DNA from: Mobula hypostoma
Lineage: Eukaryota
Reading direction: 5' to 3'
Length of the DNA stretch: 64,000 bases
Assembly: GCF_963921235.1 (NCBI RefSeq)
Contig: NC_086097.1
Coordinates: 137,332,001 to 137,396,000 of the forward strand
Shown here: positions 4,326 to 62,561 of the stretch, piece after piece
How positions within the stretch are numbered: position 1 is the stretch's first letter
Layout: the number at the start of each line of letters is the position of its first letter
The notes under the pieces: model-generated
What the model was told of the DNA's origin: nothing
The model's input: the letters and a program-made list of their open reading frames with translations, nothing else
Databases searched by the model: none
Position numbers and translations under genes: made by a program

Positions 4326-5832
4326 AAAAAGGTGCCGTGTTCTGAGTAATCTTACTAAAGAGCTGTTGCCCTATCATCTCTGTATGTGTGTTCCACTTTG
4401 ACAGCTCTCCCAAGCAGATGAGTGCTGGAGAGAATAAAAGATTAATGTAATTTTAGAATCAGGCTGAAACCGAAGAGACAAGCCAATTAATAACAGTGCG
4501 TCAACGTCAGCTGAAATTACTGCCTGAGATTACATCTGCTTTCCTATCGTCGCTGAGAATAAGCTCAAGTGAAGCGTTGACGGGAAGCAGGACCAAGTGA
4601 GAATGTCAGCTAATACAGAGACTTCCTAATGCATTTATAAACGTGAAAGATGACATCCAACATCCAAACTGACATGAACGAAAATAGAAATGCTTGAAGC
4701 TGTATTAGTTTTCCTTCCCTATTTCTCATTATGTTATGTATGCACTAGTATACACACAGTTGTGGATACACATATACAATATAAAACAGTACAGACCCTT
4801 CAGCCCATGATATCTTTCTGACCTTATAACCTAGTTTAAGATCAATCTAATCTAACCTTTCCCTCCCACATAGCCCTCCATTTTTTGTATCATTCATGTG
4901 CTTATCTAAGAGTTTCTTAAATGTCCCTAATGTATTTGCCCCTACCACCACACTTGGCAGAGGATTCCACACACCCATCACTCCCTGTGCAAAACAATTC
5001 ACCTCTGACATCCTCCTTATACTTTCTTCCAATCTCCTTAAAACTATGTATTAGTCATTTCCATACTGGGGGAAAAATCTGACTATGCCTCTTATCATCT
5101 GTATACCTCTCATTCTCATTTGCTCCAAAGAGAAAACCCCTAGCTCACTCAGTCTATCCTCATAAGACGTGCCCTCTAGACCTGGTAGCATGGTGCTGTA
5201 TCTCCTCTGCAGCCTCTCTAAAGCTTCCACATGCTTCCTATAATTGTCAGGCAGGTATATAGCCAAGTCCCCACCCAACTAACAGGAATCATCTGCCACT
5301 TGTTTCCAATGTATCACCGGCAGCCTATTTAAACCCAGCTCTCAGCCACAGTCCTTGTTCACCCATTGGACCAATCAGCCCCAGCCAGATGTTCTGGGCC
5401 TTCAGTTCCCTCGTAGCCACGATGCGTTAAGTATCTGCTCTCTCTTGTTTTGTGGCCCAATCTGGTTTGTTATTTTACAGATTTTTTGAAGTGGTCACTC
5501 ATTGCTAAATTGATACTGCTTGCTTCACATTTGGGTCAAGACTTCTCTAAATTTCCTGGCAGGATGGGTGAACCCATGATTGGCCCAGGCAGAGAATGCT
5601 CATCGAAAGGAAGTTGCTTGCTGATATGAGTGCACAATCCAAAAACAGCAGGAATCCACTGACCATCTGTACGACACTCTCAACCAACTCTCCGCCTCAT
5701 TACAGCTACCCCATGCCAGTCAACCCTTTCCCTTACAGCCCCAGATTTCAGGGCCGAATGCTTCAACAGATTCCCCAACTTCGAGTCTCCGTCTGTATTG
5801 CACTTCAAGATGCAGCCATCGCTGTATACCAT

Positions 5833-8080
5833 GGACCCTCACACTCGATACTGGATTACACTGTGGGATTCAGGACCCTCACGCTCATTACTGGATTACA
5901 CTGTGGGATTCAGGACCCTCACACTCGGTACTGGATTACACTGTGGGATTCAGGACCCTCACGCTCGTTACTGGATTACACTGTGGGATTCAGGACCCTC
6001 ACGCTCAGTACTGGATTACACTGTGGGATTCAGGACCCTCACGCTCATTACTGGATTACACTGTGGGATTCAGGACCCTCACACTCGGTACTGGATCACA
6101 CTGTGGGATTCAGGATCCTCACACTCGGTACTGGATTACACTGTGGGATTCAGGACCCTCACACTCGGTGCTGGATTACACTGTGGGATTCAGGACCCTC
6201 ACACAAGTTACTGGATCACACTGTGTGATTCAGGACCCTCACACTCGGTACTGGATTACACTGTGTGATTCAGGACCCTCACGCTCATTACTGGATTACA
6301 CTGTGGGATTCAGGACCCTCACACTCATTACTGGATTACACTGTGGGATTCAGGACCCTCACGCTCATTACTGGATTACACTGTGGGATTCAGGACCCTC
6401 ACGCTCATTACTGGATTACACTGTGGGATTCAGGACCCTCACACTCATTACTGGATTACACTGTGGGATTCAGGACCCTCATGCTCATTACTGGATTACA
6501 CGATGAGATTCAGGACCCTCACGCTCGGTACTGGATTACAGGGTGAGATTCAGGACCCTCACGCTCGGTACTGGATTACATTGTGGGATTCAGGACCCTC
6601 ACACTCGGTACTGGATTACACGGTGGGATTCAGGACCCTCACACTCGGTACTGGATCACACTGTGGGATTCAGGATCCTCACACTCGGTACTGGATTACA
6701 CTGTGGGATTCAGGACCCTCACACTCGGTGCTGGATTACACTGTGGGATTCAGGACCCTCACGCTTGGTACTGGATTACACTGTGGGATTCAGGACCCTC
6801 ACGCTCGTTACTGGATTACACTGTGGGATTCAGGACCCTCACGCTCGGTACTGGATTACACGGTGAGATTCAGGACCCTCACACAAATTACTGGATTACA
6901 CTGTGAGATTCAGGACCTTCACACTCGATACTGGATTACACTGTGGGATTCAGGACCCTCACGCTCATTACTGAATTACACTGTGGGATTCTGGACTCTC
7001 ACACTCGATACTGGATTACACTGTGGGATTCAGGACCCTCACATTCGGTACTGGATTACACTGTGAGATTCAGGACCCTCACGCTCGGTACTGGATTACA
7101 CTGTGAGATTCAGGACCCTCACGCTCATTACTGGATTACACTGTGGGATTCAGGACCCTCACACTCGGTACTGGATTACACTGTGGGATTCAGGACCCTC
7201 ACGCTCATTACTGGATTACACTGTGGGATTCAGGACCCTCACACTCGGTACTGGATTACACTGTGGGATTCAGGACCCTCACGCTCATTACCGGATTACA
7301 CTGTAGGATTCAGGACCCTCACACTCAGTACTGGATTACACTGTGGGATTCAGGACCCTCACGCTCATTACTGGATTACGCTGTGGGATTCAGGACCCTC
7401 ACACTCATTACTGGATTACACTGTGGGATTCAGGACCCTCACGCTCATTACTGGATTATACTGTGGGATTCAGGACCCTCACGCTCATTACTGGATTACA
7501 CTGTGGGATTCAAGACCCTCACACTCGGTGCTTGATCACACTGTGGGATTCAGGACTCTCACACTCGGTACTGGATTACACTGTGGGATTCAGGACCCTC
7601 ACGCTCATTACTGGATTATACTGTGGGCTTCAGGACCCTCACACTCGGTACTGGATTACACTGTGGGATTCAGGACCCTCATGCTCATTACCGGATTACA
7701 CTGTAGGATTCAGGACCCTCACACTCAGTACTGGATTACACTGTGGGATTCAGGACCCTCACGCTCATTACTGGATTATACTGTGGGCTTCAGGACCCTC
7801 ACACTCGGTACTGGATTACACTGTGGGATTCAGGACCCTCATGCTCATTACCGGATTACACTGTAGGATTCAGGACCCTCACACTCAGTACTGGATTACA
7901 CTGTGGGATTCAGGACCCTCACGCTCATTACTGGATTACACTGTGGGATTCAGGACCCTCACACTCATTACTGGATTACACTGTAGGATTCAGGACCCTC
8001 ACACTCAGTACTGGATTACACTGTGGGATTCAGGACTCACACTCGGTACTGGATTACACTGTGGGATTCAGGACCCTCAC
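5833..8080 (+). repeat. Minisatellite, about 56 copies of a 40-bp unit (ggaccctcacRctcRKtactggattacactgtgggattca)
   Basis: Strict 40-bp periodicity is directly visible, with one 2-bp deletion near 8036. Confidence 0.99.
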
Positions 8081-8920
8081 AATGCTACTTTTACCATCAC
8101 AGACTCTCAGACCAATTGAAAGACAAGTTGTCTACCCTGACGATGCCCATCGACCTCGAAAGCCTTATCACTCTAGTCCTCCGAATTGACAAGAGTCTTG
8201 TGGAACGACCCTTCAGATCATCATCTCGAACCCCAATTTCATTCCCAGAATCACTTCAGGCCACAAGACCCTCATTATTAGTGCCTCCAGTACCCAAGCA
8301 CTTATGGAGAGCTCCCTAACTCCCCAAGCGTGGGAGCATCAGTGGAGAAACAATTTGTACACTCACTGTGGAGCCACTGAACACTCGTGCATCAAATGCC
8401 CACTGCACCCAGGAAAACAGCATCACCAGGTAGAGACAAGAGGCCTTCTCTCTGGTTGTCTCCCTCCACACCCTCATTCCAGTAGCATGAGCCATCTCAC
8501 TTTGTCTTCCTCCACATCCCAACCGCTCTCTGCACGCGGCTGATGGTGCTGGAGTCTGGCACAGCAGGGAACTTTCTGAACCAGCAGTGACAGCTTGGAC
8601 TCCCTACTGAGCCTTTCTCTTATTTCCGTATTACAGCCACCGACAGACATCCCTTGGGTCTACACACACGCACGTGTCCTGTGCACATAAGCATTGGAGA
8701 GCACTCAAGTCCATCCAAGAACTCTTTATTGACCCACCCAATTCTAACCCTGGCTCTCCACTCATGACCCTCACTTCACCTGGCCACCTGGTTCACTATT
8801 GAATTGGAGATGCTCACCCACCTCAAAAGCCTCATCATGACCCTCACTTCATCCCATAGATCCGTGGAGATGGAGGAAACTTTCGACCTGACCAAACTCC
8901 CACAGGAAACCACGACTTAA

Positions 8921-9389
8921 GGCTGATTTATACTTCTGTGTCAAATCGACGCCGTAGCCTACGCGTGGTGTGAGCATCTATACTTGTGTGTTGGTGTGTC
9001 TACATCGCTCTGCAATTTACACACGTCACCCATGCGCACACACCTGCCCATGCAAGGCTTCATGGTCACAGTAGTCTTTCTCAGGGTAAACAAGTTTAAA
9101 GCAAGCGTCCTTTTTCGTAAAAGCGAAATGTGTCCTCCATAATTTCGGAGGTCTGTAAAGCTTTATGGAAAGCATTGCGGCCAGAGTTCCTTCCCTGCCC
9201 TTCAGTCGGCCAATGGGAAGCTATTGCAGCGTAGGATGAAATGCGATGCTACCAAGCAGACCAATCACAATCTGCATTGCCGCGACACGTAGTTACATTT
9301 TGTGAGAGGTGCGCGTCAGGTTACGGCACAGGGATCCGCGTAGGGTTCACGCCTATGCCGTATCTACAGCATCAAAGTATAAATCAGCC
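8921..9389. mobile_element. Non-autonomous DNA transposon (MITE) with 15-bp TIRs, nested in Gypsy pol
   Basis: Perfect TIRs ggctgatttatactt (8921-8935) and aagtataaatcagcc (9375-9389), with ttaa on both flanks. Confidence 0.9.
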
Positions 9390-12300
9390 TTAAGCCATCA
9401 CCTTCAGTAAAAGAGAGACCAGCATCCTGCTGCCTCACAGACCACATGACCGTGCAATCCATCACCTCCCAGGCACCACCCCTCCCCGAGGTCAGTCATT
9501 TGTTTTCTTCTCACCAACCCAGTTCCAAGAACACTACAGCGGACACCTTGTTCTGACAGTTTTATCCAGCTGAAATTGAGAGTGACTCTCAGCCCATCGT
9601 AGATCCTCGCCCTGGTCATTGAGATCTTGAGAACCAGATCCGCCAGGCCCTACACCATGAACCTGCTCTGGCCAATGCACCTGACAACTGCACGTACGTG
9701 CTGGCGACTGTGCACTCTTAGGCCTTTCAGTGGGCTCACTCCTCACTCACCAGCCATCCAGGCGTACAATGGATTCTGGATTTTTTGCAACGTCTGTTCC
9801 GGTCGCCCATCATGATCGCAAATGTACGTCAGTCCGTCTCTGCCTGTCCTCAATGTGCCCAGGCTAACTTCACCAACCAACAGCCCTCTGAGTTCTTGTG
9901 GCCCAACCCCCAGTGCCTGTGGTCCCACACCACCATGAATTTCATCATTGGTTTGCCACCTTCCGATGGGGCCACAGCAATCATGAGTGGTGGACTGGTT
10001 CTCCAAGGCAGCCCGCATCACTGCCCTCTCCAAAGTTCTGTCAGCCGCTGAGGCAGCGAACGCGGTTCACCCACGTGTGTTTGCCTCCACGATTTCTCCT
10101 GACTTTGTGTCAGACCAGGGCCCACAATTCTTCTCCCAAGGCTTCTGCTCTCTCCTTTGCACCTCTGAGTTTGTCCTCTGGCAATCATCCGCAGACCAGC
10201 AATCTGTCAGAAAGAGCCAATTAGCCGGTAAAAGAAGTTTCTGTGATGCATTGCTGCCTCTAACCCTTCCGGCTGTAAGAAATATCTGCTCTGGCTGAGC
10301 TGTCCCACAATTTACACACCAGCTTTGCCATGGGTTTGTCATCCTTTGAAATGCTTGATGGTTCCTTGCAGAGAAGCTGATGGTGGAGCTCCTGTCTGGT
10401 TTGCTGCTGTCGGAATACTTGGAAGAGGGCATGGAGGGCCACCCTGGCTGCTGACTGCGCTTCCTGCCACCAGGCCAACCACCAGCAGTGTCAGCCAGAC
10501 GATTCTGGCCTGTGGATAGTGTCTGGCTGTCTGCCCAAGATCTGTCCCTGCACATTGACTCCTGCAAGATCCACCCCGGTTCACTAGTTCCTTTACGATA
10601 ACCCATCACATCAATCCAGTCACTTACTGTCTCCAGCTGCCACTGTCCCTGAGGATCACACCTACCTTCCATGTGCCCTACCTCAAGCCCATGGTCCACT
10701 TAACCCACTTGAGCCTGCACCTTCATGGTGGAAGACAGTCCAGTGGTACACAGTTCACTAATTGATAGAGTCATGTCACTGTGGATGGGGTGTGCGTTAC
10801 CTGGTCAACTGGGAAGAGTATGGCCCGGAGGAGAGGCTTTGGTTGCTGTCCAGTATCACCTTGGACATCGCTCATCGAGGAGTTCCAGCACACCCATCTC
10901 GATCATCCTGGGCCGCCAGGTGCTGGCTGTAGGAGGGCGGAGTGAGGGGGTCCAGTCAGGCCTGCGTAGGCAGGTACCTCCCAGCTTCCAACCTGCTAAC
11001 AGGTATCATAATGTCCCAAGTGAGGCCTAACCAGGCTTTTAGAGAGCTGCAAGATTACCTCACAGCTCCTTAATTCAATACCCAAACCAATAAAGGACAA
11101 TACCCATACACCTTCTTAACAACTGTCAATGTTCACAGCAATTTGAAGGGATCTATGGACATGGAGACCAGGATCCCTCTGTTCCTCCGTACTGCTGGAA
11201 ATCCTGCCATTATCCCTGTATTCTCCCTTCAAAAGTGAATCTCTTCATGTTTCTGGGTTGAACTCCATCTGCCACTTCTTAGCCCAGCTCTGCATATTTT
11301 CAATGCCGTTATAACCTACCACAACCTTCTACACTACCCACAACTCTACCAGCCTTTGTGTAATCTGCTAATTTACAATCCCACCCTTCCAATTCCTCAT
11401 CCAAGTTATTTATAAAAAATCTCAAGAGCAGGGGTCCCAGAACAGCACCTCACAGAATACCACTGGTGACTGACCACCAGGCAAAAAAATGTTCCATTTA
11501 CAACCACCCTCTGCCCTCTGTGGGTAAGCCAAATCAGAATCCACACAGCCAAGTTTTCCTGGATCCCAGGCATCCTGACTTTCTGAATCAGCCTACCATG
11601 GGGAACCTTATCAAAAGCCATATAAAATTCCTATAGACCATATCCACTGCTCTACCTTCATCAATGTGCTCTGTCACACCCTCAAAGAATCCTATGCTCA
11701 TAAGGCCTGACCTACTCCTCACATGGCTGACCAACCCTAATCAGAGTCTGCTTCTCCCAATGCTCCTAAATCCTGTCTCAAAGAATTTTTGTCAATAACT
11801 TGCCCACCACTAAAGACTCACTGGGTTATATATTCCCAGGGTTATCCCTACTCCCTTTCTTGAACAAAGAAATAGCATCTGCACTCATGTACACAGAAGC
11901 ATGGGCATAAACATTTTATTAGTCGCTTTTGTAACTAATTCATACACATCTTCCACTCCTTAGAAATACACCCCAAGATCCTCAGATTCTTGACACAGAG
12001 AGACTGCAAAGAAGATATTTTCTGAATTTAAAGACGTCAATTATTTTCCGCTCTGGAGAAAATACAAGACTGCAATGCTGGAATCTGGAGCAAAATAAAA
12101 CTGCTAGAGGAACTCAGGTCAGGCAGCATCTTTAGGAGGAAATGGACAGTTGTCAAGAACCTTCATCTAGACATTGTTATATTTGGCATCTGTAAAACTA
12201 GAAGATATCAATGAGAAAAGGGCTAATATGCAAACTGACTATCTGTTTGTCGATAACATACACACTAATGTAGTATCTGCCCAGAAGCTAGCTTTTATAT

Positions 12301-20749: not shown

Positions 20750-23700
20750 AATCCAAAAGACCGTGTCAGGGATCTGGAGCTGCAGCTGATGACCTACTGC
20801 TTATTAGGGAAAGTGAAGAGATGATAGACGGGGGCTACAGGGGTCAGAAAACTGGGTGACTGTCAGGAGAGAGAAGGAGACTTCCCGGATAGTGGAGAGC
20901 ACCCCTGTGGCTGTCCCCCTCAGTGACAAGTATCTTATTCTGGATGTTGTTGAGGGGGATGACCTGACAGGGGACGTCCACGGTGACTGGGTCTCTGGCA
21001 CTGAGCTTGGCGCTGCTGTGCAGGAGGGAAGGAGGGAGAAGAGGAATGCGGTAGTCATAGGGGATTCCATAGTCAGGGGAACAGACAGGAGATTCTGCGA
21101 GCCTGATAGAGATACCCGCATGGTGTGTTGCCTCCCTGGTGCCAGGGTACAGGCTGTCTCGGATCAGGTCCAGAATATTCCGAAGGGAGAGGGCGAGCAG
21201 CCAGTTGTCTTGGTACATGCTGGTACCAATGACATAGATAGGATGAGGGAGGAGGTCCTGAAGAGAGATTTCCGGGAGTTAGGAAGGAAGCTGAGAAGCA
21301 GAACCTCCAGGGTAGTAATCTCAGGATTGCTACCTGTGCCACATGCTAGTGAGGGCAAGAATAGGTAGGATCAGGAAGATGAATGCATGGCTGAGAGACT
21401 GGTGCAGGGGGCAGGGCTTCAGATTCTTGGATCATTGGGATCTCTTCTGGGGGAAGTATGACCTGTTCAAAATGGACAGGTTACACCTGAACCCGAAGGG
21501 GACCAACATCCTGGTGGGAAGGTTTAATAGAGCTGTTAGGGAGGGTTTAAACCAATCTGGCAGGGGGATGGAAACCAGAATGATAGAGCGGAGGAAGGGG
21601 AAAACAGAAATAAATCTAAGATAGTGAGCAGTAAAGATGTCAGGAAAGACAGGCAGGTGATAGGGCAAATTTGTAGCCATTGGGATGATTTGCAGTGCAA
21701 TCAAAGCAAAAAGTATCAAATACTGGTCTTAAGGTGTTATACTTAAATGCACGCAGCATAAGGAGTAATGTGGATGATCTTGTTGTACAGCTATAGATTG
21801 GCAGGTATGATATTGTGGCCATCACTGAGACCTGGCTAAAGGATGCATGTCTCTGGGAGCTGAACGTCCAAGGATACACGGTGTATCGACAGGATAGGAA
21901 GGTAGGCAGAGGGGGTGGCGTGGCTTTATTGGTAAGAAATGATATTAAATCATGAGAAAGAGGTGATATAGGATCGGAAGGTGCAGAATCTTTATGGGTT
22001 GAGCTAAGAAATCACAGGGGTAAAAGGACCCTGATGGCAGTTATTTATAGGCCTCCAAACAGCTGCAGGGATGTGGACTACAAATTACAACAGGAAATAG
22101 AAAAGGCTTGTCAGAAAGGCAGTGTTATGATAATTGTAGGGGAATTTAACATGCGAGTAGATTGGGAAAATCATGTCGGCACTGGATCTCAAGAGAGAGA
22201 ATTTGTAGAATGTCTGCGAGATTGCTTTTTAGAACAGCTTGTTATCGAGCCCACTAGGGGATCGGCTGTACTGGATTGGGTATTGTGTAATGAACCGGAG
22301 GTGATTAGAGAGATAGAGGTGAAGGAACCCTTAGGAGGCAGTGATCATAACATGATTGAGTTCACTGTGAAATTTGAAAAAGAGAAGCCAAAATCCGATG
22401 TGGCTGAGAGACTGGTGCAGGGGGCAGGGCTTCAGATTCCTGGATCATTGGGATCTCTTCTGGGGGAAGTATGACCTGTTCAAAATGCACAGGTTACACA
22501 GGTATTTCAGTGGAGTAAAGGAAATTATAGTGGCATGAGAGAGGAACTGGCCAAAGTTGACTGGAAAGGGACACTGGCAGGAAAGACGGCACAGCAGCAG
22601 TGGCTGGAGTTTATGCGAGAAGTGAGGAAGGTGCAAGTCAGGTATATTCCAAAAAAGAAGAAATTTTCGAATGGAAAAAGGATGCAACTGTGGTTGACAA
22701 GAGAAGTCAAAGCCAAAGTTAAAGCAAAGGAGAGGGCATACAAGAAAGCAAAAATTAGTGGGAAGACAGAGGATTGGGAAGTTTTTAAAACCTTACAAAA
22801 GGAAACTAAGAAGGTCATTAAGAGGGAAAGGATTAACTATGAAAGGAAGCTAGCAAATAATATCAAAGAGGATACTAAAAGCTTTTTCAGTTATATAAAG
22901 AGTAAAAGACAGGTGAGAGTAGATATAGGACCGATAGAAAACGATGCTGGAGAAATTGTAATGGGAGATAAGGAGATGGCGGAGGAACTGAACGAGTATT
23001 TTGCATCAGTCTTCACTGAGGAAGACATCAGCAGTATACCGGACACTCAAGGGTGGCAGGAAAGAGAAGTGTGCGCAGTCACAATTACGACAGAGAAAGT
23101 ACTCAGGAAGCTGAATAGTTTAAAGGTAGATAAATCTCCCGGACCAGATGGAATGCACCCTCATGTTCTGAAGGAAGTAGCTGTGGAGATTGCGGAGGCA
23201 TTAGCGATGATCTTTCAAAAGTCAATAGATTCTGGCATGGTTCCGGAAGACTGGAAGATTGCAAATGTCACTCTGCTACTTAAGAAGGGGGCAAGGAAGC
23301 AAAAAGGAAATTACAGACCTGTTAGCTTGACATCGGTGGTTGGGAAGTTGTTGGAGTCGATTGTCAAGGATGAGGTTACAGAGTACCTGGAGGCATATGA
23401 CAAGATAGGCAGAACTCAGCATGGTTTCCTTAAAAGAAAATCCTGCCTGACAAACCTATTACAATTTTTTGAAGAAATTACCAGTAGGCTAGACAAAGGA
23501 GATGCAGTGGATGTTGTATATTTGGATTTTCAGAAGGCCTTTGACAAGGTGCCACACATGAGGCTGCTTAACAAGATAAGAGCCTATGGAATCACAGGAA
23601 AGTTACATACATGGATAGGGTGTTGGCTGATTGGCAGGAAGCAGAGAGTGGGAATAAAGGGATCCTATTCTGGTTGGCTGCTGGTTACCAGTGGTGATTC

Positions 23701-25832: not shown

Positions 25833-27587
25833 TTATGTGTTACAAGTCAGTGCCTCTGCAAATGGGCCAAGAAGGTTTTTATTAAAGATGCACCTTATCC
25901 AAATCAGGTACGTTGTAAATGGTTTAATGTTTTCTATAAACGTGTAGTTCTGGTGAGGCAAGATGTAGGGCATATATGTGTTCTCACCTTGTTCCTGTAT
26001 CCAAACCTCATATGTCACCTCTTTTACCTTCAGGTACTTCAGATTCCAAGGTACTTGCCAGGAAACAGACAACTTTGCTTCACTGGCACTCTGGACAGAG
26101 GCTTGACATATGGAATCTCGCACTTTCCCAGGATATATTATACTTCTTGCTTTAACCTTCCCGAGAGGAGGTTTTGATTTCACTGACTGGTGAATTGCAG
26201 TCATCACAGATGTGATATCTATATGGGTGTCTTGATAAATACGGAATAGCCATTCAGGATTTCGGCAGCACAGGTGGCGAGGGACTTCTTTGCTCTTTAC
26301 AATGCGCTCTTGTTCAACTCTATCAAGGTGAGCAATTCCACCTTGTTCCCAGGGTCTGTCAGGATGGGTAACAGTATTCTCTTCCTTTGTGTTCTGCCAA
26401 GCAACATACTGTAGGTCCATGTTCAGGAGAGATGCCAGGGTTTTATAGGGCGTGTAATGCTCTGGGTTCACGGCATAAGGAAAAAGTTCAACAACCACAG
26501 CACCCCTAGGCAGAAACATTGCCATCACTAGTTGGGATCCATGCATGCTGACCAACATGGAGGCACCACTAATCAGTCTGACGAGGTCCCCGAAGGAATA
26601 CGCGTCCAGAGACACCGCAATAGTCTTCATCTGAAACTCCTGTGCTAGTGCTAGGATCAACTCTGCTTCATTCAAGATCAACCTGTTAACTGTGCGACTG
26701 AACAGTACAATGTACTCTTCACCACTGGAGCTTGTAGTAATGTTTAACTTTTCCACAATGAAGTGTGTGAATTGCCTGATTTCATTTCCAGATACCAATA
26801 TATTTGCTTTTGGTCCCTGAGGCTGGATGAAGCCGTACTGGTACCAAGTTGTCATTTTTGACAACCCAACATAAGATTTTGTAAAGCAAAGCAAACTCCC
26901 AAGACTCTTCAATTGTTCCCTCAGAAGAGGTTGTTTGTTACTAAATAATTTGTAGAGCTCAAAGTGCAACCCTTCATTCCACCCTTCCATAAAGACCAAG
27001 CGCGAATCTTCATTCAAGTCCTGAAACTGCAGCATTGTGTAGTAGATCGGGAGCAGATCATCATGGAAGATGTGCATGAGGTTATCCGGATTGAACCGAT
27101 TCATAATCAGTGCAACGTCTGGCACAAAGACTGGCTTCTGCATGAATTTGAGAGCTGCAACAGGCAATTCCACAAAATTGAAGTACTGGGCAGTGTGATC
27201 TTCCACAGAGGACAGGTCTAGAAGAGCAGGCTGGAATCGCCGCGAGCCCAGGTTCGGCAGCAGTATAGAGGCGTTGCCGTGGAAGAAGACAAACTCTTCA
27301 GCCTCTGTAGAGTAGCAGAGGGACTCGATCCGACAGATCCGCTCAGTATGCATTCTCCCGGTGCAAACCATTCTGGTGCCATTTTCCATAAGAGCCTGCA
27401 GGGCTGCGTGGTAGTCAATCTTAACTTGGGACAGCTCTTGGGTTTGCTGGGATAGCAACAATTCTTCTTCCAGTGAAGTGACCTGCTCCCACAACTTGAC
27501 ATACTTCCACAGCACTGCCGCCAGGATGGACACAAGAAGAGCGTTGACAATAATTGCTATGCTCATTCTGCGGTTTGATTTAGACAT
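25833..27587 (-). CDS. POMGNT2: Protein O-linked-mannose beta-1,4-N-acetylglucosaminyltransferase 2 (GT61 family, C-terminal FN3 domain); single coding exon
   Basis: Intact 584-aa ORF. It has an N-terminal signal-anchor ([16 protein letters not shown]), the motifs [41 protein letters not shown] and [20 protein letters not shown], and an FN3 domain ending [16 protein letters not shown], all matching vertebrate POMGNT2. The true start is probably the second ATG at 27566 ([11 protein letters not shown] aligns to human MHLSAVLNALL; A at -3). Confidence 0.97.
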
Positions 27588-27654
27588 GTAGAGCTAAGTG
27601 CATATCACAGCAAGCTGATGGCAAAGAGACCCCTCTCAAGGCAGCGTGAAGACC

Positions 27655-27677: not shown

Positions 27678-28203
27678 TAGTTGCTTCCAATTAAAACACA
27701 TTCAAAAATTGAATTAGATCCCTCAAAATCACAAGGAGACAAAGGGGGAGGCAGCAATGATAATTTACAGTCATGTACCGTTTTGACATAATAAACAACC
27801 AAGGGATTAGGATAAGAAAAGAACAATTTGTCACCAAACTACCAGGTCAAATCTTGGTAAGATACAAGGATGTCTACTGGAAGATGGAGCAAGGTGGAGA
27901 GGCAGAGTTGTCGGAAGAATTTCCCAGGGAAGTTGCAAAGGGATGGTCACTGATGGTGCAGAGATTGAAAGTAGGGAAGACCCAGAGCCTGGAATCGAAG
28001 AGGATATTTCCATGCTGCATCTCCTGAATACTCTAAGAATGGAGATGACAAAGGGATGTGGGAAGGGATAGGGTAGGGAAGGATGTGTTTATGAGCAAAA
28101 CTGAAGACTGAAAATAGAATATGGGCCAGATCAGCAGCAGTGTAGGTCAGTGAGTAGAGAACTTCTGAAACTATGGAAATGGTGCAAATTAGAATTTGAA
28201 TGA

Positions 28204-28417
28204 CGCAAACACGAGGAAATCTGCAGATGCTGGAAATTCAAGTAACACACACAAAATGCTGGTGAACACAGCAGGCCAGGCAGCATACATAGGAAGAAGC
28301 ACAGTCAACATTTCAGGCCGAGACTAGAAGGGTCTTGGCCTGAAACGTCGACTGTGCTTCTTCCTATGGATGCTGCCTGGCCTGCTGCGTTCCACCTGCA
28401 TTTTGTGTGTGTCTCTA
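28204..28417. mobile_element. Penelope-derived foldback mini-element (two inverted terminal repeats)
   Basis: Arms of about 80 bp at 28245-28324 and 28332-28412 are reverse complements; probable TSD agaatttgaatga/agagtttgaatga. Confidence 0.85.
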
Positions 28418-28724
28418 AGAGTTTGAATGAGATCATCTTTAGAACAAATGAGAGGTGGAGATCACTTCATCACCTACCTCTCCCCTCTCTGGAAGGCTGA
28501 ACCACGTGTGAATAAATCATCCAGCTGATTCAGGAAGCACATCCATCACTATTGCCAATATCCTTGGGTACTTTCCCCAGTCCTCGGTGCGGTGTACCCT
28601 CTGCAATACAGAGGGGTTTGTTCCTAGAAAAAAGTCTGTTTGTAATTTTCCACAATGCAAATCGTTTCTCCCACTGAATCTCTCAACAATTGTGTCCTGG
28701 CTGGTGCATGGCCTATAGACAAGG

Positions 28725-30310
28725 CAACACACACAAAATGCTGGAGGAATTCAGTAGGTCAGGCAGCACCTATGGAAATGAATAAAGTCGACGTTTCGGG
28801 CCAAGACCCTTCATCAGGACTTGAAAGGAAGGGGGAAGACAACAGAATAAAAAGGTGGGGGGAGGGGAAGGAGGATAACAAGAAGGTGATAGGTGAAGCC
28901 AGGTGGGTAGGAAGGTGAAAGGGCCAGAGAAGAAGGAATCTGATAGGAGTGGAGAGAGGACCATGGAAGAGAAGGAGGAGGAGGGGATCCAGGGGGAGGT
29001 GATAGGCAAGTGAGAAGAGGTAAGGTGCCAGAGTGGGGAATAGAGAAGAGGGGAGGGGAAGGGGCACTTTTTTTTTTACCAGAAGGATTAATTGACGTTC
29101 ATGTCATCAGGTTGGAGACTACCCAGATGGAATATAAGGTGTTGGTCCTCCCCCTCGAGGGTGGCCACATCGTAGCACAAGATGAGGCCATGGACCGACA
29201 TGTCAGAACAGGAATGGGAATTGGAATTAAAATGTTTGGCCACCAGGAAGCTCTGCTTTTGGCAGATAGAGCGCAGATTCTTGACGAAGCAGTCCCCCAA
29301 TTTACAAAGGGCCTCACCAATGTAGAGGAGGCTGCATCAGGAGCACTGGACACAATAGACGAATCCAGCAGATTTGCAAATGAAGTGTTGCCTTACCTGG
29401 AAGGACAGTTTGGGGCCCTGAATGGAGGTGAATGGGCAGGTGTAGCATTTTGGCCACTTGCAGGGATAGGTACAGGGAGGGAGATTAGTGGGGAGGGACG
29501 GATTGGCAAAGGAATCACAGAAGGAGCCATCCCTGCAGATGGTGAAGAGGAGAGAGGTAAAGATATGTTTGGTGGTAGGATCTCTTTGGAGATGGCAGAA
29601 GTTGCAGCGAATGATATGTTGGAAGTGGAGGCTCATGGGGTGGTAGGAAAGGACAAGAGGAACTCTGTCACTGTTAAGGCAGTGGGGAGATGGGGTGCGC
29701 GTGGATTTCAGGAAATAGAGAAGACGCAGACAGAGGAGGGAGGTGTCAGAAATGGACCAAGTGAATTTAAGGGCAGGGTGAAATTGATAAAATTCACAAT
29801 CTCAGCATGGCTGCATGAAGCAGCATCACTGCCATCATCAATATATCAAAGGAAGAGTTGGGGAGTATAAATGGGGAAGGCTTGAAACAAGGACTGTTCT
29901 ACATAGCCAACGAAAAGGCAGGTATAGCTGGGGCCCATGTGGGTGCCCACGGCTATCCCTCACGTCTGGAGAAAGTGGGAGGAGCAAAAGGAAAAATTGC
30001 TAAGGGTGAGGAGTTCTGCCAGATGGAGGAGGGTGGTAGTGGAGGGGAACTGGCTGGTCCTTTTATTCAGAAAGAAGTGGAGAACTAGAAGGCCTTCCTG
30101 ATGGGGGATAGAAACGTAGAGGGACTGGACATCGATGGTGAAAATGAAGCCATCAGGGCCAGGGAATTGAAATTTAGGGAGGAGATCAGGAGCATGAGAA
30201 GTATCACGGATGAAGGTGGGAGGGGACTGAACCGAGGATAGAATGGAGTCGAGGTATGAGGACAAGGGTTCAGTGGGACAGGAACAGGCAGAGACAATAG
30301 GAATTCTGAC
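28725..30310 (-). mobile_element. Penelope-like element, 5'-truncated and decayed (RT and GIY-YIG endonuclease)
   Basis: FIFTIDVQSLY, NFSFCSSHFLQT, MGTHMGPSYACLFVGYVE, YCVQCS...VAKHFNS, IFHLGSLQPD; 3' terminal repeat with hammerhead. Confidence 0.9.
28785..28822 (-). ncRNA. Minimal type I hammerhead ribozyme (PLE-associated)
   Basis: Minus strand AAGUC-CUGAUGA-A-GGG-UCUUGG-CCC-GAA-ACGU-C^GACUU: complete core, stem I of 5 bp, stem II of 3 bp, palindromic stem III ACGU. Confidence 0.8.
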
Positions 30311-38589: not shown

Positions 38590-40497
38590 AATCAGGAAAT
38601 TACAGGCCAGTGAGACTGACATCAGTAGTGGGAAAGTTAGTAGAAGGTATTCTAAGGGACCGGATTAGGGATAGTTAGCATGACTTTGTGAATTTTGTGC
38701 ATGGTAGGTCATGTATAACCAATCTTATAGAGTTTTGTGAGGACATTACCAGGAAAATTGAAGAAGGCAAGGCAGTGGATGTTGGCTAATTGGACTTTAG
38801 CAAGCCATTTAACAAGGTTCACATGGGAGATTGGTCAGGAAGGTTCAGTCGTTTGGCATTCAAGATGTGGTAGTAAGCTGGATGAGACATTGGCTTTACG
38901 GGGGAAGCCAGAGAGTGGTAGTAGATGGTTGCCTCTCTCACTGGAGGCCTGTGACTAGTGGTGTGCAGCAGGGATCAGTGCTGGGTCTGTTGTTGTTTGT
39001 TATCTGCTTCAATGATCTGGATGATAATGTGGTTAACTGGATCAGCAAATTGGCAGATGACACCAAGATTAGGGGAGTAGTGGACAGTGAGTAGTGAACC
39101 AGCTGGAAAAATGGGCTGAAAAATGTCTGCATTAAATTTCATCTGTAAAGTGCAATGTGTTGAACTTCAGTAGGACCAACCACAGTGTTACCCAGTAGTT
39201 CTTACACACTGAACATTCAGGCACTGAAGAGTGCAAAAGAACAAAGGGACCTGGGAATACAAGTCCATAAATCATTGCGAGTGGCATCACAGGTAGAAAG
39301 GATCATAAAGAAGGCTTTTAGCCTTCTGGCCTTCATAAATCAAAGTATTGAGTACAGCCAGAAAAAGCAGGATCTCCCAGTGGCCACCCATTTTAATTCC
39401 ACTCCTCATTCCCATTCTGATCTGTTAGTCCATGGCCTCCTCTACTCTCGTGATGAGGCCACTTTCAGGTTGGAAGTACGCCACCTTATACTCCGTCCTG
39501 GTAGCCTCCAATCCGATGGCACAAGCATCGATTTCTGGAACTTCCAGTAACGACCTCCCCACCATTTCCTATTTCCATTTCCCTCTCTCACTTTATCTCC
39601 TTACCTGCCTCTCTCCTTCCTCTGGTGCTCCTCCCCCTTTTCTTCCTTCCATGACCTTCTGTCCTCTCCTATCAGATTCCCCCCTCTCCAGCCCTGTATC
39701 TCTTTCACCAATCAACTTCTCAGCCCTTTACTTCACCCTCCCCCCCAGTTTCACCTATCACCTTGTGGCTCTTCCTCCACTGCTCCGAGTCATCCTTTTT
39801 CCCAGTCCTGATGAAGGGTCTCGCCCTGAAACGCCTACTTTTTACTCTTTTCCATAGATGCTGCCTGACCTGCTGAGTTCCTCCAGCATTTTGTGTGTGT
39901 TGCTTGGATTTCCAGCACCTGCAGAGCTTCCTTTGTTTATAGTGAGTACAGGAGGTGGGTTGTTATGCTGAAGTTGTATAAGATATTGGTGAGACCTAAC
40001 TTGGAGCATTGTGTGCAGATGTAAATAAAGTTGAAAGAGTACACAGAAAATTCACGAGGATGTTGCCGGGACTGGAGAACCTGAGATCTAAGGAAAGATG
40101 GAATAGGTTAGGACTATACTCCTTGGAACATAGGGGAGATTTGATAAGGTATACAAAATTATATGGTATAGAAAGGGTAAATGCAAGCAAGCTTTTTCCA
40201 CTGAGGGTGGGTGGGACTACAACTAGAGGTCATGGGTTAATAGTAAAAGGTGTGAAGTTTAAGGGGAACATGAGAGAAAACTTCTTCACTCAGAGGGCCA
40301 TTGAGAATGTGGAACGAACTGCCAGTGTAAGAGGTACATGACAGCTCAATTTCAACACTTAAGAGAAGTTTCGATGGGTATACAAATGGGAGGAGAATGG
40401 TCAGGGTGCAGGGTCGATGGGTACTAGGCAGTTTAAATGGTTTAGTACAGCCTAGCTAGGCAAAAGGGTCTGCTTCTGTGCTGTACTTTTCTATGAC
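38590..40497 (+). mobile_element. CR1 LINE remnant with nested Penelope fragment
   Basis: QQGSVLGLLLF, KLADDTK, RVHRKFTRMLPGL, TRGHGL, CR1 3' end. Confidence 0.9.
39358..39939 (+). mobile_element. 5'-truncated Penelope element (GIY-YIG C-terminus and terminal repeat; decayed hammerhead at about 39804-39839)
   Basis: QDLPVATHFNS...GSLQSDG; TSD tattgagtacag (39346-39357) / tagtgagtacag (39940-39951). Confidence 0.9.
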
Positions 40498-43163: not shown

Positions 43164-44336
43164 CAGCGGTCCCCAACCACCAGGCCGCAAAGCATGCGCT
43201 ACCGGGCCGCGAGGAAACGATATGATTTGGCGATAGGAGTCAGCTGCACCTTTCCTCATTCCCTGTCACGCCCACTGTTGAGCTTGAACGCACGCGAGCT
43301 CATTACCCGCGCGTCGTCCATGTCAGTGCGGGAAGGAGTTCAACTCCTCGAGCTTGCAAATGACGGTGGGCTGAAAAGTATGTTTGACATAACATCTCTG
43401 CCAGCATTCTGGATCAAAGTCAAGGCTAAATATCCTGAGATAGCCACGAAAGCACCGAACACGTTGCTTCCATTTCCAACATACCTCTGCAGTGAATGCA
43501 ACTAAAACTAAATTGCGGAATAGACTGGACATAAGGAACCCCGTTCGAGTATCACTGTCTCCCATCACCCCTCGATGTTGCAGGGAAACAAGCCCAGGGC
43601 TCCCACTGATTCAGTGATATTGGCGTGTTGCAATGATTTTATATGTTCATACGGGGAAAATATGTGCTGTGTTTAATATCCAAACGTTACTTAAAATGTT
43701 ATGATGCTATTGACCTACTTATATAAACAAATAACAATTACAGCACGGAAACAGGCCATCTCGGCCCCTTCAGTCCGTGCTGAACTCTTACTCTCACCTA
43801 GTTCCACCGACCTGCACTCAGCCCATAACCCTCCATTCCTTTCCTGTCCATATACCTATCCAATTTTTCTTTAAATGATAATATTGAACCTGCTTCTGCC
43901 ACTTCTACTGGAAGTTCGTTCAACACTTACTTCAAGCTCCCCTGTCCTCCCCTGATAATTGACTTATCACTATATTCATGCAAGGAAAATATGTGCTGTG
44001 TGTTTAATATTAAATTCGTTAGATAAACGCTTTTAGAAACGAAATTGAATGTATTAGCCACTTATCACCTATATTCCGGTCGTGATTAACACCCCCCCCC
44101 AAACAGAATCGCCAAAAACGATTTGCAGAAAAAAAATCGGCAGGTACACACATGCGCACTGGTGCCCGCGCAAGGCTTCATGGTCATTGTAGTCTTTGTA
44201 GTCTTTCTCTGGGTAAACACAACGTATTTGACTGCTACTCTTGTCCGATGGCAACCCTACTCACCCCCCCCCCACCACACCGCGTTGGCCAGTCCGCAAG
44301 AATATTGTCAATATTAAACCGGTCCGCAGTCCCCCA
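43164..44336 (+). mobile_element. Non-autonomous hAT (Charlie/Buster) element with transposase dimerisation-domain remnant
   Basis: TIR cagcggtccccaacc; perfect 8-bp TSD tcttagaa (43156-43163 and 44337-44344); LLELANDGGLKSMF...FWIKVKAKYPEIA...LLPFPTYLC; 3' TIR damaged. Confidence 0.9.
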
Positions 44337-49585: not shown

Positions 49586-49984
49586 GTAGACCAGTAGACC
49601 AAAAACAAATCAGAATGCTATTCAGATAGTTAAAAACTAGAATCAGATTTAATATCACTGGTACATCTTGTGGAATTTGTTGTTTTGTGGCAGCAGTACA
49701 CTGCAATACAAAATAATAAAAAGCTATAAATTACATTGAGCATATATTTTAAAGAATAAATTAACTAAGTAGTGCAAAAGGAGAGGAAAAAGTAGTGAGC
49801 TCGTGTTCATGGATTCATCATCCTTTCAGAAATCTGTTCAATTTGTTAAAATATTGGTCCCATCAGCTTCACTGTGTTCATTTTTGACCAATGCAAGTTA
49901 TAAAGTTGCATTGGCCTCAGGGGCAAGCAAATTGTTGCACTGAAGATTCACCAGCAGACATGACTAAAAGTGTTAAATTATAAA

Positions 49985-51543
49985 CAACACACATCAAAGT
50001 TGCTGGTGAACACAGCAGGCCAGGCAGCATCTCTAGGAAGAGGTACAGTCGACATTTCAGGCCGAGACCCTTCGTCAGGACTAACTGAAGGAAGAGTTAG
50101 TAAGAGATTTGAAAGTGGGAGGGGGAGGGGGAGATCCAAACTGATGGGAGAAGACAGGAGGGGGAGGGATGGAGCCAAGAGCTGGACGGGTGATTGGCAA
50201 AGGGGATATGAGAGGATCGTGGGACAGGAGGCCCGGGGAGAAAGACAAGGGGAGGTGAAACCCAGAGGATGGGCGAGGGGTATAGTCAGAGAGACAGCGG
50301 GAGAAAAAGGAGAGTGAGAGAAAGAATGTGTGTATAAAAATAAATAACGGATGGGGTACAAGGGGGAGGTGGGGCATTAGCAGAAGTTAGAGAAGTCGAT
50401 GTTCATGCCATCAGGTTGGAGGCTACCCAGACGGAATATAAGGTGTTGTTCCTCCAACCTGACTTCATCTTTACAGTAGAGGAGACCATGGATAGACATG
50501 TCAGAATGGGATTGGGATGTGGAATTAAAATGTGTGGCCACTGGGAGATCCTGCTTTCTCTGGTGGACAGAGCGTAGGTGTTCAGCAAAGCGGTCTCCCA
50601 GTCTGCGTCGGGTCTCGTCAATATATAGAAGGCCACATCGGGAGCACCGGACGCAGTATATCACCCCAGCTGACTCACAGGTGAAGTGTCGCCTCACCTG
50701 GAAGAACTGTCTGGGGCCCTGAATGGTGGTAAGGGAGGAAGTGTAAGGGCATGTGTAGCACTTGTTCCGCTTACAAGGATAAGTGCCAGGAGGGAGATCA
50801 GTGGGGAGGGATGGGGGGGACGAATGGACAAGGGAGTCGGGTAGGGAGCGATCCCTGCAGAAAGCAGAGAGAGGGGGGAGGGAAAGATGTGCTTAGTGGT
50901 GGGATCCCGCTGGAGGTGGCGGAAGTTACGGAGAATAATATGTTGGACCCGGAGGCTGGTGAGGTGGTAGGTGAGGACCAGGGGAACCCTATTCCTAGTG
51001 GGGTGGCGGGAGGATGGAGTGAGAGCAGATGTACGTGAAATGGGGGAGATGCGTTTGAGAGCAGAGTTGATAGTGGAGGAAGGGAAGCCCCTTTCTTTAA
51101 AAAAGGACATCTCCCTCGTCCTGGAATGAAAAGCCTCATCCTGAGAGCAGATGCGGCAGAGACGGAGGAATTGCGAGAAGGGGATGGCGTTTTTGCAAGA
51201 GACAGGGTAAGAAGAGGAATAGTTCAGATAGCTGTGATAGCTGTGAGAGTCAGTAGGCTTATAGTAGACATCAATGGATAAGCTGTCTCCAGAGACAGAG
51301 ACAGAAAGATCTAGAAAGGGGAGGGAGCTGTCAGAAATGGACCAGGTAAACTTGAGGGCAGGGTGAAAGTTGGAGGCAAAGTTAACAAAGTCAACGAGCT
51401 CAGCATGCGTGCAGGAAGCAGCGCCAATGCAGTTGTCGACTGTACCTCTTCCTAGAGATGCTGCCTGGCCTGCTGCGTTCACCAGCAACTTTGATGTGTG
51501 TTGCTTGAATTTCCAGCATCTGCAGAATTCCTGTTGTTTGCGT
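49985..51543 (-). mobile_element. Young Penelope-like element with inverted terminal repeats and TSD
   Basis: RT (ALKFTWSISDSSLPFLD, KNAIPFSQFLRL) and GIY-YIG (VIYCVRCSRCGLLYIDETRRRLGDRFAEH); inverted termini at about 49985-50054 and 51434-51502; 14-bp TSD tgttaaattataaa (49971-49984 and 51544-51557). Confidence 0.95.
50047..50082 (-). ncRNA. Minimal type I hammerhead ribozyme (PLE-associated)
   Basis: AGUC-CUGACGA-AGG-GUCUCGG-CCU-GAA-AUGU-C^GACU; core intact, stem III differs from ACGU by one probable CpG transition. Confidence 0.75.
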
Positions 51544-55065: not shown

Positions 55066-55477
55066 CAGCGGTCCCCAACCACCGGGCCGCGAGGAAACGA
55101 TATGATTTGGCGATATGAGTCAGCTGCACCTTTCCTCATTTCCTGTCATGCGCACTGTTGAACTTGAACGCATGCGAGGTCATTACGCAAGCGTCATCCA
55201 AGTCAGCGTGGGAAGGAGACCAACTCCTCGAGCTTGCAAATGACGGCGGGCTGGAAAGTATGTTTGACATAACATCTCTGCCGGCATTCTGGATCAAAGT
55301 CAAGGCTGAATATCCTAAGGTAACCACGAAAGCACTGAAAACATTGCTTCCATTTCCAACATATCTCTGCAATGAATGCAACGAAAATTAAATTGCCGAA
55401 TAGACTGGACATAAGGAACCCCCTTCGAGTATCGCTGTCTCCCATCACCCCTCGATGTTGCAGGGAAACAAGCCCAG
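55066..55477 (+). mobile_element. Truncated second copy of the hAT/Charlie element
   Basis: Same TIR and transposase remnant as 43164; fused at cccag to a Rex/Babar fragment. Confidence 0.9.
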
Positions 55478-56649: not shown

Positions 56650-58105
56650 TAGGATAAATAGGTCCCCAGGGATAGATGGGATATACCCCAGGTTACTAGG
56701 AGAAGCAAGGAAAGAGATTGCTGAGCCATTGGCGATAATCTTTGCATCCTTACCGGCCGCAGGGGTAGAACTAGCAGACTGAAGGTTATTCTTTTGTTCA
56801 AGGAGCACTGATAATCCTGTGAATTATAGAGCAGCAATTCTGGCCAAATTATTGAAGAAGATTTACAAGCATTTGGAGAAGCATAGTCCGATAAGGGATA
56901 GTCAACAAGGCTTTGAGAGGTCATAAACTGACAAAAGTCAAGTGCCATGGGATCTAGGGAAATTTGGCTTGTAGGTTCAGAATTGGCTTGCCCGTCAAGG
57001 TTTTGGATGGTTGTAGAGAGCATATTCTGCATGGAGGTTAATGACTAGTGGTGTACCATCGGGCTATGCTTTGTGATTTTTATAAATGACTTGGACAAGA
57101 AAGTGGAAGAGTGGGTTAGTAAGTTTACAGAAACACAAGGGTTACTGGAATTGTGAATAGTGCAGAAGGTTGTCATAGATTACAACAGGACATTGATAGG
57201 ATCTAGAGCTGGGCTGAAATATGGCAGATGAAGTTCCACTCTGAACTCCAAATCAAAAAAAGCGTGAAGTGATTTACTTTGTTAAGTCAAATTTAAAGGT
57301 AGAATACAGGATGAAGTGCAGCACTCTTAGCAGTGTGGAGGAATGGAGGGGTCTTGGGGTTCAATGATCCCTGAACGTTGCCGAGCAAGTTGATATGGTT
57401 GTTAAGAACATGTGTGGAGTTTTGGCTTTCATTATTTGGGGAATAAGTTTAAGACCCATGAATCAATATTGCAGCTCTACAAAGCCCTCGTTCGACCACA
57501 CTTGGAATATTGTGTTCAGTTCTGATCATCTCATTTTAGAAAGGATATAGAAGATTTAGAGGGGGTGCAAAGGAGATTTACCAGGATGCTGACGAAGGGT
57601 CTCAGCCTGAAATGTCGACTGCACCTCTTCCTAGAGATGCTGCCTGGCCTGCTGCGTTCACCAGCAATTTTTATGTGTGTTGCTTGAATTTCCAGCATCT
57701 GCAGAATTCCTGTTGTTTACCAGGATGCTAGCTCAATTAGAAAACATGTCTAAAGAGGAGAGCTAGGGCTTTTCTCTTTGGAGTGAAGGAGGATAAGAGG
57801 TGAGTTGATCAGAGGCAGAGATCGAGTGGATAATCAGAGACTTGTCCTGAGGGTGGAAATGGCTAATAACAGGGGCCATCATTTTAAGCTGGTTGCAGAA
57901 AAGTTTTTTGAAACACAGACTGATGGTGGTAGAGGCAAATACATTAGGGACATTTAAGAAACTCTTAGATAACCACATAGAAGACAGAGGAATGGAGGGT
58001 TATATAGGAGGGAAGGGTTAGTTTGATCTTAGACTAGGTTTAAAAGTTTGGCATAACATCATGGGATGAAAGGTCAGTACTATGCTGTTGTGCTCTATGT
58101 TCTAT
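56650..58105 (+). mobile_element. Decayed CR1 LINE
   Basis: gataaataggtccccaggg, LVRPHLEYCVQF-like sequence, CR1 3' end. Confidence 0.85.
57591..57715 (+). mobile_element. Solo Penelope terminal repeat (125 bp) in CR1
   Basis: 14-bp TSD tttaccaggatgct (57577-57590 and 57716-57729); near-identical to 51434-51540. Confidence 0.92.
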
Positions 58106-60555: not shown

Positions 60556-60874
60556 ATACTATTATTTCTTTCTGCACTAAAACTCTCAGTAAAATTGGAT
60601 GGTTAAAAAAACACTGATCTCATTTTCTGCAGTGTATAATTTATTTTGTACAGCAAGAACAAATTACTGAGCTGGCTCCAAAATAACATTCCTGGTGATG
60701 GAGTTTGGAATTGGATCAGTACTCTGTTGCAGATCTGATACTGCTGAGCCAAAATATGTCTGCAAGACTCTACCTGATTCACTAATAGAACTTGGACAGA
60801 CTTGGGGCTGGGATTATTTTTTTAAAACTCAAGCACCTGATCTCAGCCAACTGCTATGTCAACTGCTTACTTTT

Positions 60875-60962
60875 TGCCATAGATGCTGCCTGACCTGCTG
60901 AGTTCCTCCAGCATTTTGTGTGTTGCTTTAGATTTCCTGTATTTGCAGATTTTCTCATGTTA
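60875..60962 (+). mobile_element. Solo Penelope terminus (others at about 12065, 24655, 41310, 52880 and 59985)
   Basis: catagatgctgcctgacctgctgagttcctccagcattttgtgtg. Confidence 0.8.
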
Positions 60963-61009
60963 GCAATAAAACTTGTATGGTTAATATACTCCAGAGTTTA
61001 AGAAAGTGA

Positions 61010-61600: not shown

Positions 61601-62561
61601 AAAAGCAGTATATCCAGCTGTATGAAGCTGAGACAATGGTAATGAATCTTACACTTTTCAGAATGAACAACTACGTTTTTAAATCACGTAGGCATTACAG
61701 CAGAATTTAGCATTAGTAATTTAGTCTATGATTCATGCTGTAATGAGAGGCTCTCCACACTATTGACATCAGAGTGGTGTTGTGAATGGTCTGTGGAATG
61801 TTGAGGCAGTTGAAATTGGGAAGTCTAAAGAATATAAAATACATTTTCTGTTCTTCACAATCAGCTGCCATTCAATCTAAAGTTGTGTGAAACACTCAAG
61901 TCTTTTCTATAAAATGCTTTAATAAACAATATTAAGTGCTTTACAGTTTTTCACAACATCAAATGACAATGCAAATGTCCTCTAATTTAGTATTTGACAA
62001 GGCAGTAGCAGGTAGGTAAATTTCCAGTTTATGTTCTGTGTTTTCCAGCTGCATAATAACTATCGAGCAATTAACCCACTGCATTCTAAAACATGATGCC
62101 TTTCAAGGAGTGACTTCATGCTGAATGACTGTGCTATGCCAAGGGCCAGGCAGCTAGAACAGTTTCTCTTGCAGAGGATCAAACGTTCATCCAAGCATAA
62201 GCATCACCAGAAATATAACTAATAAGGAACCAATTGGTGGAATCATTGTTATCACAGGGAACAACCTGCAACCATATTTAAAACCACAGAATTAAATATC
62301 AATGCAACAGGCTCTTTACAATACAGTATTCAAGGCGTGTGTAATCTTATATAGAATGAGCGACATAGTGGAGATGATTAGAGCTGCTGCCACAGTTTCA
62401 GTGAGCTGGGTTCAATCCTCACCTCCAGAACTTTATGCTTCTTTTCTTTTTGTGAAAAACTGAATTAAACCAATGAACTCTACTCAGGCTTCCAGCCGGA
62501 AACAGGTATTGATTATAACTGATTTTTTCCCCAAAAATATACTTTATTCAGAAAAATTACA

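Follow-up and report, generated by a model that had tools for sequence, protein, structure and literature searches.

Tandem repeats with a unit taken from the gag coding region of a Ty3/Gypsy retrotransposon are known from cereals: according to two reports that cite them, the 250-bp centromeric repeat of wheat and rye comes from the gag of Cereba, and the E3900 satellite of the rye B chromosome is a second case (PMC3648361, PMC9659126). In squamates, the SINE-derived satellites (sSats) are presented as the outcome of amplification of one segment of an interspersed repeat at several loci, with terminal units that run into the parent, with locus-specific, alternating subvariants, and with great differences between related species (PMC10702118). 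In Lathyrus sativus, short arrays occupy a fixed place within Ogre LTR elements, behind the coding region, and are carried along with the element; some are reported to have reached satellite scale in one species (PMC7004042). Mammalian minisatellites derived from transposable elements include mouse Ms6-hm and Hm-2, which lie in MaLR LTRs, and about 7,276 are cited for human (PMC9659126, PMC6947457); the Haber-Louis model, as summarized in one of these sources, has them start by slippage between 5-10-bp direct repeats that flank the future unit (PMC6947457).

The tandem array analyzed here lies in a 64-kb stretch of DNA, hereafter called the window, and interrupts the gag of a Gypsy element. 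Like the cereal repeats, it is built from a unit out of gag, but its unit measures 40 bp where theirs are far longer, it belongs to a vertebrate and not to a plant, and it still lies at its motif's own place in gag; the amino-acid likeness of 53% quoted for the cereal repeats applies to the Cereba case only. With the sSats it shares the multi-locus pattern, the terminal units, the subvariants, and the disparity between relatives, whereas their parent is a tRNA SINE with units of 70-290 nt and the parent here is a coding motif of a low-copy LTR element. Its shortness and fixed place in an LTR element recall the Ogre arrays, which differ in lying outside the coding region. In unit and array size, and in the slippage proposed as its start, it resembles the mammalian minisatellites, but these stem from LTRs or SINEs, and the direct repeat at our locus is imperfect and partly observed. 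A literature search that covered few subscription papers turned up no case of a cartilaginous fish with a tandem repeat derived from gag. The locus is a clear animal example of a known route of repetitive-DNA birth, a process already described, in cereals for gag as well.

The host of the array is a decayed chromovirus-type (Sushi-like) Gypsy element at 5245-11008, "Sushi" being the name that we assume for its group; its reverse transcriptase (RT) is mostly deleted, so that it cannot be placed in a clade by a tree. The features of the element and its insertions are the following.

5240..5244, plus strand: left target-site duplication, ATAAT (or TAAT, 5241-5244), repeated after the 3' end at 11008/11009-11012; tentative.
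5245..5562, plus strand: 5' LTR, beginning TGTCAGG; right end estimated by eye.
5563..5837, plus strand: 5' part of gag, frameshifted, ending at the QPSLYTMD motif.
5833..8081, plus strand: tandem array of 56.3 units of 40 bp, each corresponding to the gag motif (13 codons plus 1 nt); two main unit types alternate.
8082..8432, plus strand: 3' part of gag (C-terminal part of the capsid, followed at ~8380-8410 by a decayed CCHC knuckle), lacking 29 nt where it meets the array.
8433..8915, plus strand: protease region, decayed; tblastn 8748-8870 to P0018 281-316, E 5e-5.
8916..9394, no strand assigned: MITE-like insertion, high-copy, bounded by a perfect terminal inverted repeat of 20 bp with TTAA as its outermost 4 nt.
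9403..9516, plus strand: start of RT; tblastn to P0015 158-195, E 3e-6.
9722..10932, plus strand: integrase, decayed, with H2C2 zinc finger, core, SH3, and chromodomain (Pfam, tblastn).
10931..10950, plus strand: polypurine tract, read from the sequence.
10954..11008, plus strand: 3' LTR, truncated to ~55 nt, ending in CA.

The element shows the structure of Gypsy, with TG...CA LTRs (the 3' one truncated), a polypurine tract, and a 4-5-bp target-site duplication, and its domains follow the order gag-PR-RT-RH-INT, represented by gag, the protease region, the start of RT, and the integrase. The target-site duplication is tentative because the 3' LTR is truncated; both flanks of the element match one LINE copy in the window (57576-57533 and 57514-57329). 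Over its first 48 nt, the 5' LTR agrees with the sequence behind the polypurine tract at 35 of 48 positions (score 23, reached by 0 of 2000 shuffles in an anchored test), and an unanchored local test of the LTR pair was borderline, with a score of 38 that equals the best of 300 shuffles. In the 5' part of gag, LHFKMQPSLYTMDPH aligns to positions 77-91 of the gag P0006 (20.6 bits) and, by tblastn, to 61-76 of P0021 (E 0.052). Pfam gave no match on the three frames of this part or on the decayed protease region, and its gag family was absent from all six gag pieces of the window. The 3' part of gag, searched by phmmer with the frame that leaves the array, found 30 gag-like proteins and matched nine full gags by tblastn (E 1e-10 to 1e-12). 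Most of RT and RNase H is absent, with ~200 nt (9516-9722) leading to the integrase, which begins at ~9725 and matches PF17921 (E 1e-6), PF00665 (E 0.003), PF24626 (E 3e-10), and PF00385 (E 0.11); the chromodomain at its end, at E 0.11 by Pfam alone, also aligns by tblastn (10747-10923) to the Chromo region of P0002 with a linked E of 2e-10. In the domains of its gag matches, the alignment of one of these (P0006) to PEG10, and an integrase that ends in SH3 and chromo-like domains, the host resembles the Sushi-ichi-like chromoviral Gypsy elements of fish and PEG10, from which this copy differs in being dead and mostly devoid of RT. The MITE-like element, 479 bp long, sits between protease and RT; we take its TTAA ends to suggest a piggyBac- or Kolobok-type parent.

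Elsewhere in the window, an intact single-exon ORF of 586 codons (25833-27593, minus strand) carries Glyco_transf_61 (E 1e-13) and fn3 domains and is presumably POMGNT2; its 3' end is separated from the array by ~17.7 kb. Short elements with inverted ends form a second family, present at 28189-28412 and about ten other places, among them 28724-29260, 39798-39939, 49982-50078, 51434-51539, 57577-57719, and 60841-60964, and several of its members adjoin Penelope-like ORFs. TRF detected a 52-bp tandem repeat of 3.5 copies at 62561-62737, and close duplications pair 21388-21486 with 22401-22499 (99 bp, 98%) and 43201-43597 with 55081-55477 (397 bp, 92%).

An earlier note, made from the letters of the window, had described about 56 copies of a 40-bp unit between two gag segments, and both the array and its flanks were recovered. 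TRF places the array at 5833-8081, one base past the end first given (8080), with period 40, 56.3 copies, 91% matches, 0% indels, and a score of 3537; the flanks read LHFKMQPSLYTMD on the left and CYFYHHRLSDQLKDKL..LVLRID on the right. Of the units, 55 keep exact phase and the 56th has lost 2 nt; behind it stands a partial unit of 11 nt. Translated in one frame, the unit gives S(V/L)LDYTVGFRTLT. The window contains no N, and the rest of its 64 kb holds no further copy of the unit on either strand at ≥21/30 matches. With a unit of 10-100 bp, a length in kilobases, and variant units interspersed, the array has the make-up of a minisatellite.

The units are far from uniform: 33 of the 56 40-nt slices are distinct, and the mean pairwise difference among 55 units is 8.6%. 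Two main types, which differ by alternative losses of two adjacent CpGs, make up 34 of the 55 units and tend to alternate between odd and even positions (12 of 2000 shuffles were as strong). Units 45-48 are identical to units 49-52, a run of four that 3 of 1000 order shuffles reached, and units 7-9 are identical to units 21-23. The array has thus undergone recent block duplications, which together with the alternating types show an ongoing turnover by unequal exchange and conversion. The host element is old and dead; its array is still turning over via block copying.

Nothing suggests a function for the array, which showed no unusual folding, RNA family, or protein relative and whose open plus-strand frames are unremarkable. 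Since 40 is not divisible by 3, the array breaks the gag frame, and the conservation of the motif at the protein level is incidental. A coding role was rejected: the period of 40 cycles through the frames, no protein relative was found, and a stop-free unit arises in 10.8% of 5000 shuffles. A protein search with the array ORF gave 0 matches among 32 candidates, limited to 175-559 aa, and Pfam matches on that ORF fell below the cut-off and were disregarded. Of note, the plus strand has only 3-6 stops per 733 codons, and this near stop-free strand could mislead gene predictors. Secondary structure was rejected as a driver of amplification, as three units fold no better than their shuffles (z -0.01), and an Rfam search of the whole window returned 0 matches.

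The earlier note had derived the unit from a gag motif, written here as QG-x-SV-x-DY-xx-EFRTL, and this origin is borne out by a profile score and by gag sequence upstream of the unit in public contigs. Among the 13-codon windows of the unit, taken in every frame and on both strands, the highest-scoring one falls on P0006 154-166 (27.8 and 32.0 bits for two unit pairs), whereas shuffled units scored 8.6 on average and 21.1 at most, and 0 of 200 reached the real score. The profile matrix was built from 28 gags, two with internal repeats (P0001 and P0002) being excluded, and these gags were retrieved with a query containing the unit, which favors the unit match. Eight scanned gag proteins (six of the 30 and two cluster members) carry Retrotrans_gag and Ty3_capsid domains, DUF4939 is also among the domains of the gag matches, and P0006 aligns to PEG10 across the motif (E 3e-13). 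Protein searches with the right gag piece gave 0 matches, both without the unit (56 candidates) and with it (4 candidates).

Contig DNA provides evidence that is independent of the unit-containing query. We searched public contigs of four runs (X1, X5, X7, and X9) from organisms A, B, and C with the last unit and the right flank; X1 is from A and may be the assembly's own sample, in which case it lends no independent support, and X5 and X7 are from one sample of B, twofold apart in unit depth. In B, 46 (X5) and 42 (X7) contigs with loose ends before 8036 extend upstream of the unit, the median extension being 82-83 nt; read by hand, the consensus of these extensions, with an agreement of 0.57-0.59, is gag that ends in Gln-Gly, in frame with the unit. 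The 10-residue peptide of this consensus has its best profile place at P0006 143-152, as expected, with a score that 506 of 2000 shuffles reached. These contigs could be left edges of arrays and not single-unit copies. In A, a tandem variant on 19 contigs reads R-S-V-L-D-Y-T-V-E-F by hand, with the conserved Glu that the units of the window lack.

We consider it very improbable that the array is an unrelated satellite inserted with a chance likeness to gag, abundant as the unit is in the genome, or an assembly artefact, although its length is that of the assembly alone. Against this pair of readings speak the profile score at exactly the right position, gag directly upstream of the unit in 42-46 contigs, the lack of a target-site duplication around the array and of any N in the window, the 33 distinct slices, and a right junction found in contigs of two organisms.

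Profile coordinates confirm that the array occupies exactly the position of the motif, with gag on either side: on P0006, the left flank extends to 89, the unit begins at ~152-154, and gag picks up again in the right flank at ~179. The claimed loss of flanking gag also holds on both sides. On the left, ~62 codons are missing, since the spacing from the end of the left flank to the Gln of the motif (P0006 89 to 151) is 62 residues in all five proteins that have both landmarks (P0006, P0016, P0024, P0033, and P0034). On the right, 29 nt are missing, since FRTL and LSD are 18 codons apart in most gags but 25 nt apart in the window. The motif aligns to the start of the PEG10 chain 7LGA, which we take to be the capsid C-terminal domain of PEG10. 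The retroviral major homology region (MHR), a motif of 20 residues, is described as lying at the start of that capsid domain (10.64898/2026.03.22.711591). The term "major-homology-like," applied to the motif beforehand, thus fits by position, and by position only. The motif occurs once in fish gag proteins, with the exception of P0001 and P0002. These two entries comprise an axolotl protein of 1822 aa, which consists of ~eight tandem copies of a segment including this gag region, and a pipefish protein that contains this region in triplicate; other vertebrates, too, have tandem duplications spanning this stretch of gag, but their units are longer and remain in frame.

The right junction is single-copy, locus-specific, and common to A and B. 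In B, it is covered by one contig, with depths of 7.3 and 12.3 in the two runs, that shows 13 differences in 403 nt and ends inside a unit, and as this is the only B contig present at 8083, the junction is single-copy and older than the split of A and B. In A, the depth is 27 at the junction versus 224 slightly further into gag. Three orthologous contigs together give 26 differences between A and B in 941 nt (2.8%); paralogous copies of the family differ by ~16% (25/153).

Beyond the locus, the unit appears to be abundant. Its summed contig depth is 689,610 in X1, 30,963 in X5, 14,576 in X7, and 481 in X9, the last run comprising only 118 million letters and being excluded from the depth ratios. 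Set against the array locus's own contigs (depth 10-11, 6-7, and 12-13 in X1, X5, and X7), this amounts to 63,074 times single copy in A and 4,538 and 1,163 times in B, values of summed depth and not copy numbers. Dividing by 31, the maximum inflation by overlapping 31-letter words, gives floors of 2,035 in A and 146 and 38 in B; the excess in A survives this floor, and the floor in B overlaps the 56 units of the array itself. The MITE-like element, with a summed depth of up to 445,470 in X1 and 18,000-41,000 times single copy in A and B, served as a reference: the unit/MITE ratio is 1.55 in A versus 0.12 and 0.064 in B, which makes the unit 13-24 times more abundant in A, a gap to which B units diverged below the 80% cut could contribute. 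The gag flank reaches only 98, 104, and 51 times single copy (X1, X5, and X7), which suggests ~50-100 copies of the Gypsy family.

Each of the four runs contains tandem joints that go back 40 nt, the main site being represented by 32, 10, 10, and 1 contigs, with the same phase and main period in A, B, and C. In A, what lies behind the unit on 83 contigs is a variant that contains CTGGGTG and GGAATTC; further variants occur on single contigs of depth 124-259. These motifs and other variant motifs of A are found in none of the units of the window array, whereas the forms with GGAATTC or CTGGGTG dominate the loose ends of A behind 8081. The one-locus story told by the earlier note is therefore not borne out: the unit stands in tandem far beyond the array, with variants foreign to it, so that the widespread repeat named there as one half of the case against its own reading is what we found. 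Minor tandem periods were also seen, of 46 in A, B, and C and of 38 or 47 in A (joints 8081-to-8036 and 8078-to-8041). A joint of 8081 to 8806, found at low depth in each run, connects the unit with the protease region and is probably an internally deleted family copy common to the three organisms; we rejected it as a recurrent breakpoint, since the alignment of any paralog must stop at 8081. An exact 27-nt unit pattern had 0 matches in metagenome and viral contigs, and the metagenome locus L001, considered as a related locus, was a false match, its frame not being gag and the unit not aligning.

Because the same unit is amplified elsewhere, and strongly so in A, the locus represents one member of a family of tandem repeats that stems from gag, most likely sister to the other arrays and not the source from which they came. 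The window array and the dominant variants of A each carry changes that are absent from the other, which fits sister arrays that were born apart at one weak spot, or that spread early and were homogenized apart; the absence of A's dominant forms from the window array points to locus-specific homogenization.

An unlikely but serious contender would have the duplication arise once, in a non-autonomous master, and retrotransposition spread short arrays that each expanded separately, a course with precedent in the nine Lathyrus satellites reported to come from arrays within Ogre elements (PMC7004042). The shared phase and main period of the joints in A, B, and C would follow directly from it, although one direct repeat guiding independent births is expected to impose a common phase as well, and the roughly 50-100 family copies and a host without most of RT and RNase H, as in non-autonomous elements, suit it too. 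The right junction in B, however, is single-copy, and one paralogous contig, 985-994 nt long and of single-copy depth, extends without a break for 519-528 nt upstream of 8090, a statement on its length and not on its upstream letters, leaving no room for a long array.

We find it somewhat less probable still that the array was seeded from outside, through a break in the dead gag that was repaired by copying an existing array via the homologous motif, with the loss of gag on both sides in the same event. The two-sided loss and the large pool of tandem units in A agree with such a transfer, as does a G at unit column 18, a state common in other arrays, in 3 of the 55 units; a similar transfer is proposed for the second CRM1TR locus of maize (PMC3648361). 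The variants that dominate the pool of A are nevertheless missing from the array, and the right junction predates the split of A and B, yet the big excess is in A. More doubtful by a wide measure is a founder role, in which the window array would be the cradle of all other arrays of the unit: it has kept both gag flanks, and its unit diversity of 8.6% exceeds the A-B flank divergence of 2.8% and so marks it as old, but other tandem variants retain the Glu codon that all of its units lack and are closer to gag at that site.

Our preferred reading, for which we see a modest balance of probability, is that turnover of DNA within a dead Gypsy copy produced the array as a non-coding by-product, which grew in place as a sister of other arrays. 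In the parent gag, the Gln-Gly-Ser-Arg codons before the motif and the Phe-Arg-Thr-Leu codons at its end would form an imperfect direct repeat, whose partners are 40 nt apart and have a common CTC(A/G)C core. The first duplication may have come from slippage or unequal exchange between these partners, and unequal exchange and conversion would then have enlarged the array in place. A deletion would have removed the ~62 codons on the left, probably joined at a GGACC common to parent and unit, and another the 29 nt on the right; the left join does lie inside a GGACC that flank and unit share. Such two-sided deletions are also expected from repair that uses an ectopic array. Family contigs show the 5-bp core upstream, preceded by a CA(A)GG that matches in part, and the downstream partner of the core is read from the array only; the putative single-unit parent and the candidate direct repeat are thus drawn from the loose-end consensus, with its agreement of 0.57-0.59, and from the array's own letters. 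As for the claim of an origin in situ, the parent and the place stand, and birth at the locus itself is the most probable reading; the larger family had been missed.

A bolder proposal, which we rate as possible though clearly below an even chance, is that the gag motif is a recurrent satellite nursery. Several dead copies would have borne arrays of the same unit via the same imperfect direct repeat, and at least one of these arrays would have grown, after the split of A and B, into a major satellite of A with tens of thousands of units, possibly centromeric or subtelomeric.

It is uncommon for the parent of a satellite to remain identifiable; in this case it is a coding motif already known, and an array still lies in its cradle. 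Between two relatives with ~3% divergence in their flanks, the unit family seems to vary in abundance by a factor of more than ten, and three steps proposed for the birth of a satellite, namely first duplication, amplification, and homogenization, become testable on one family. If the motif is indeed such a nursery, a single-unit parent, cradles of kilobase size, and a mature satellite would coexist in one genome, next to a close relative with an order of magnitude less.
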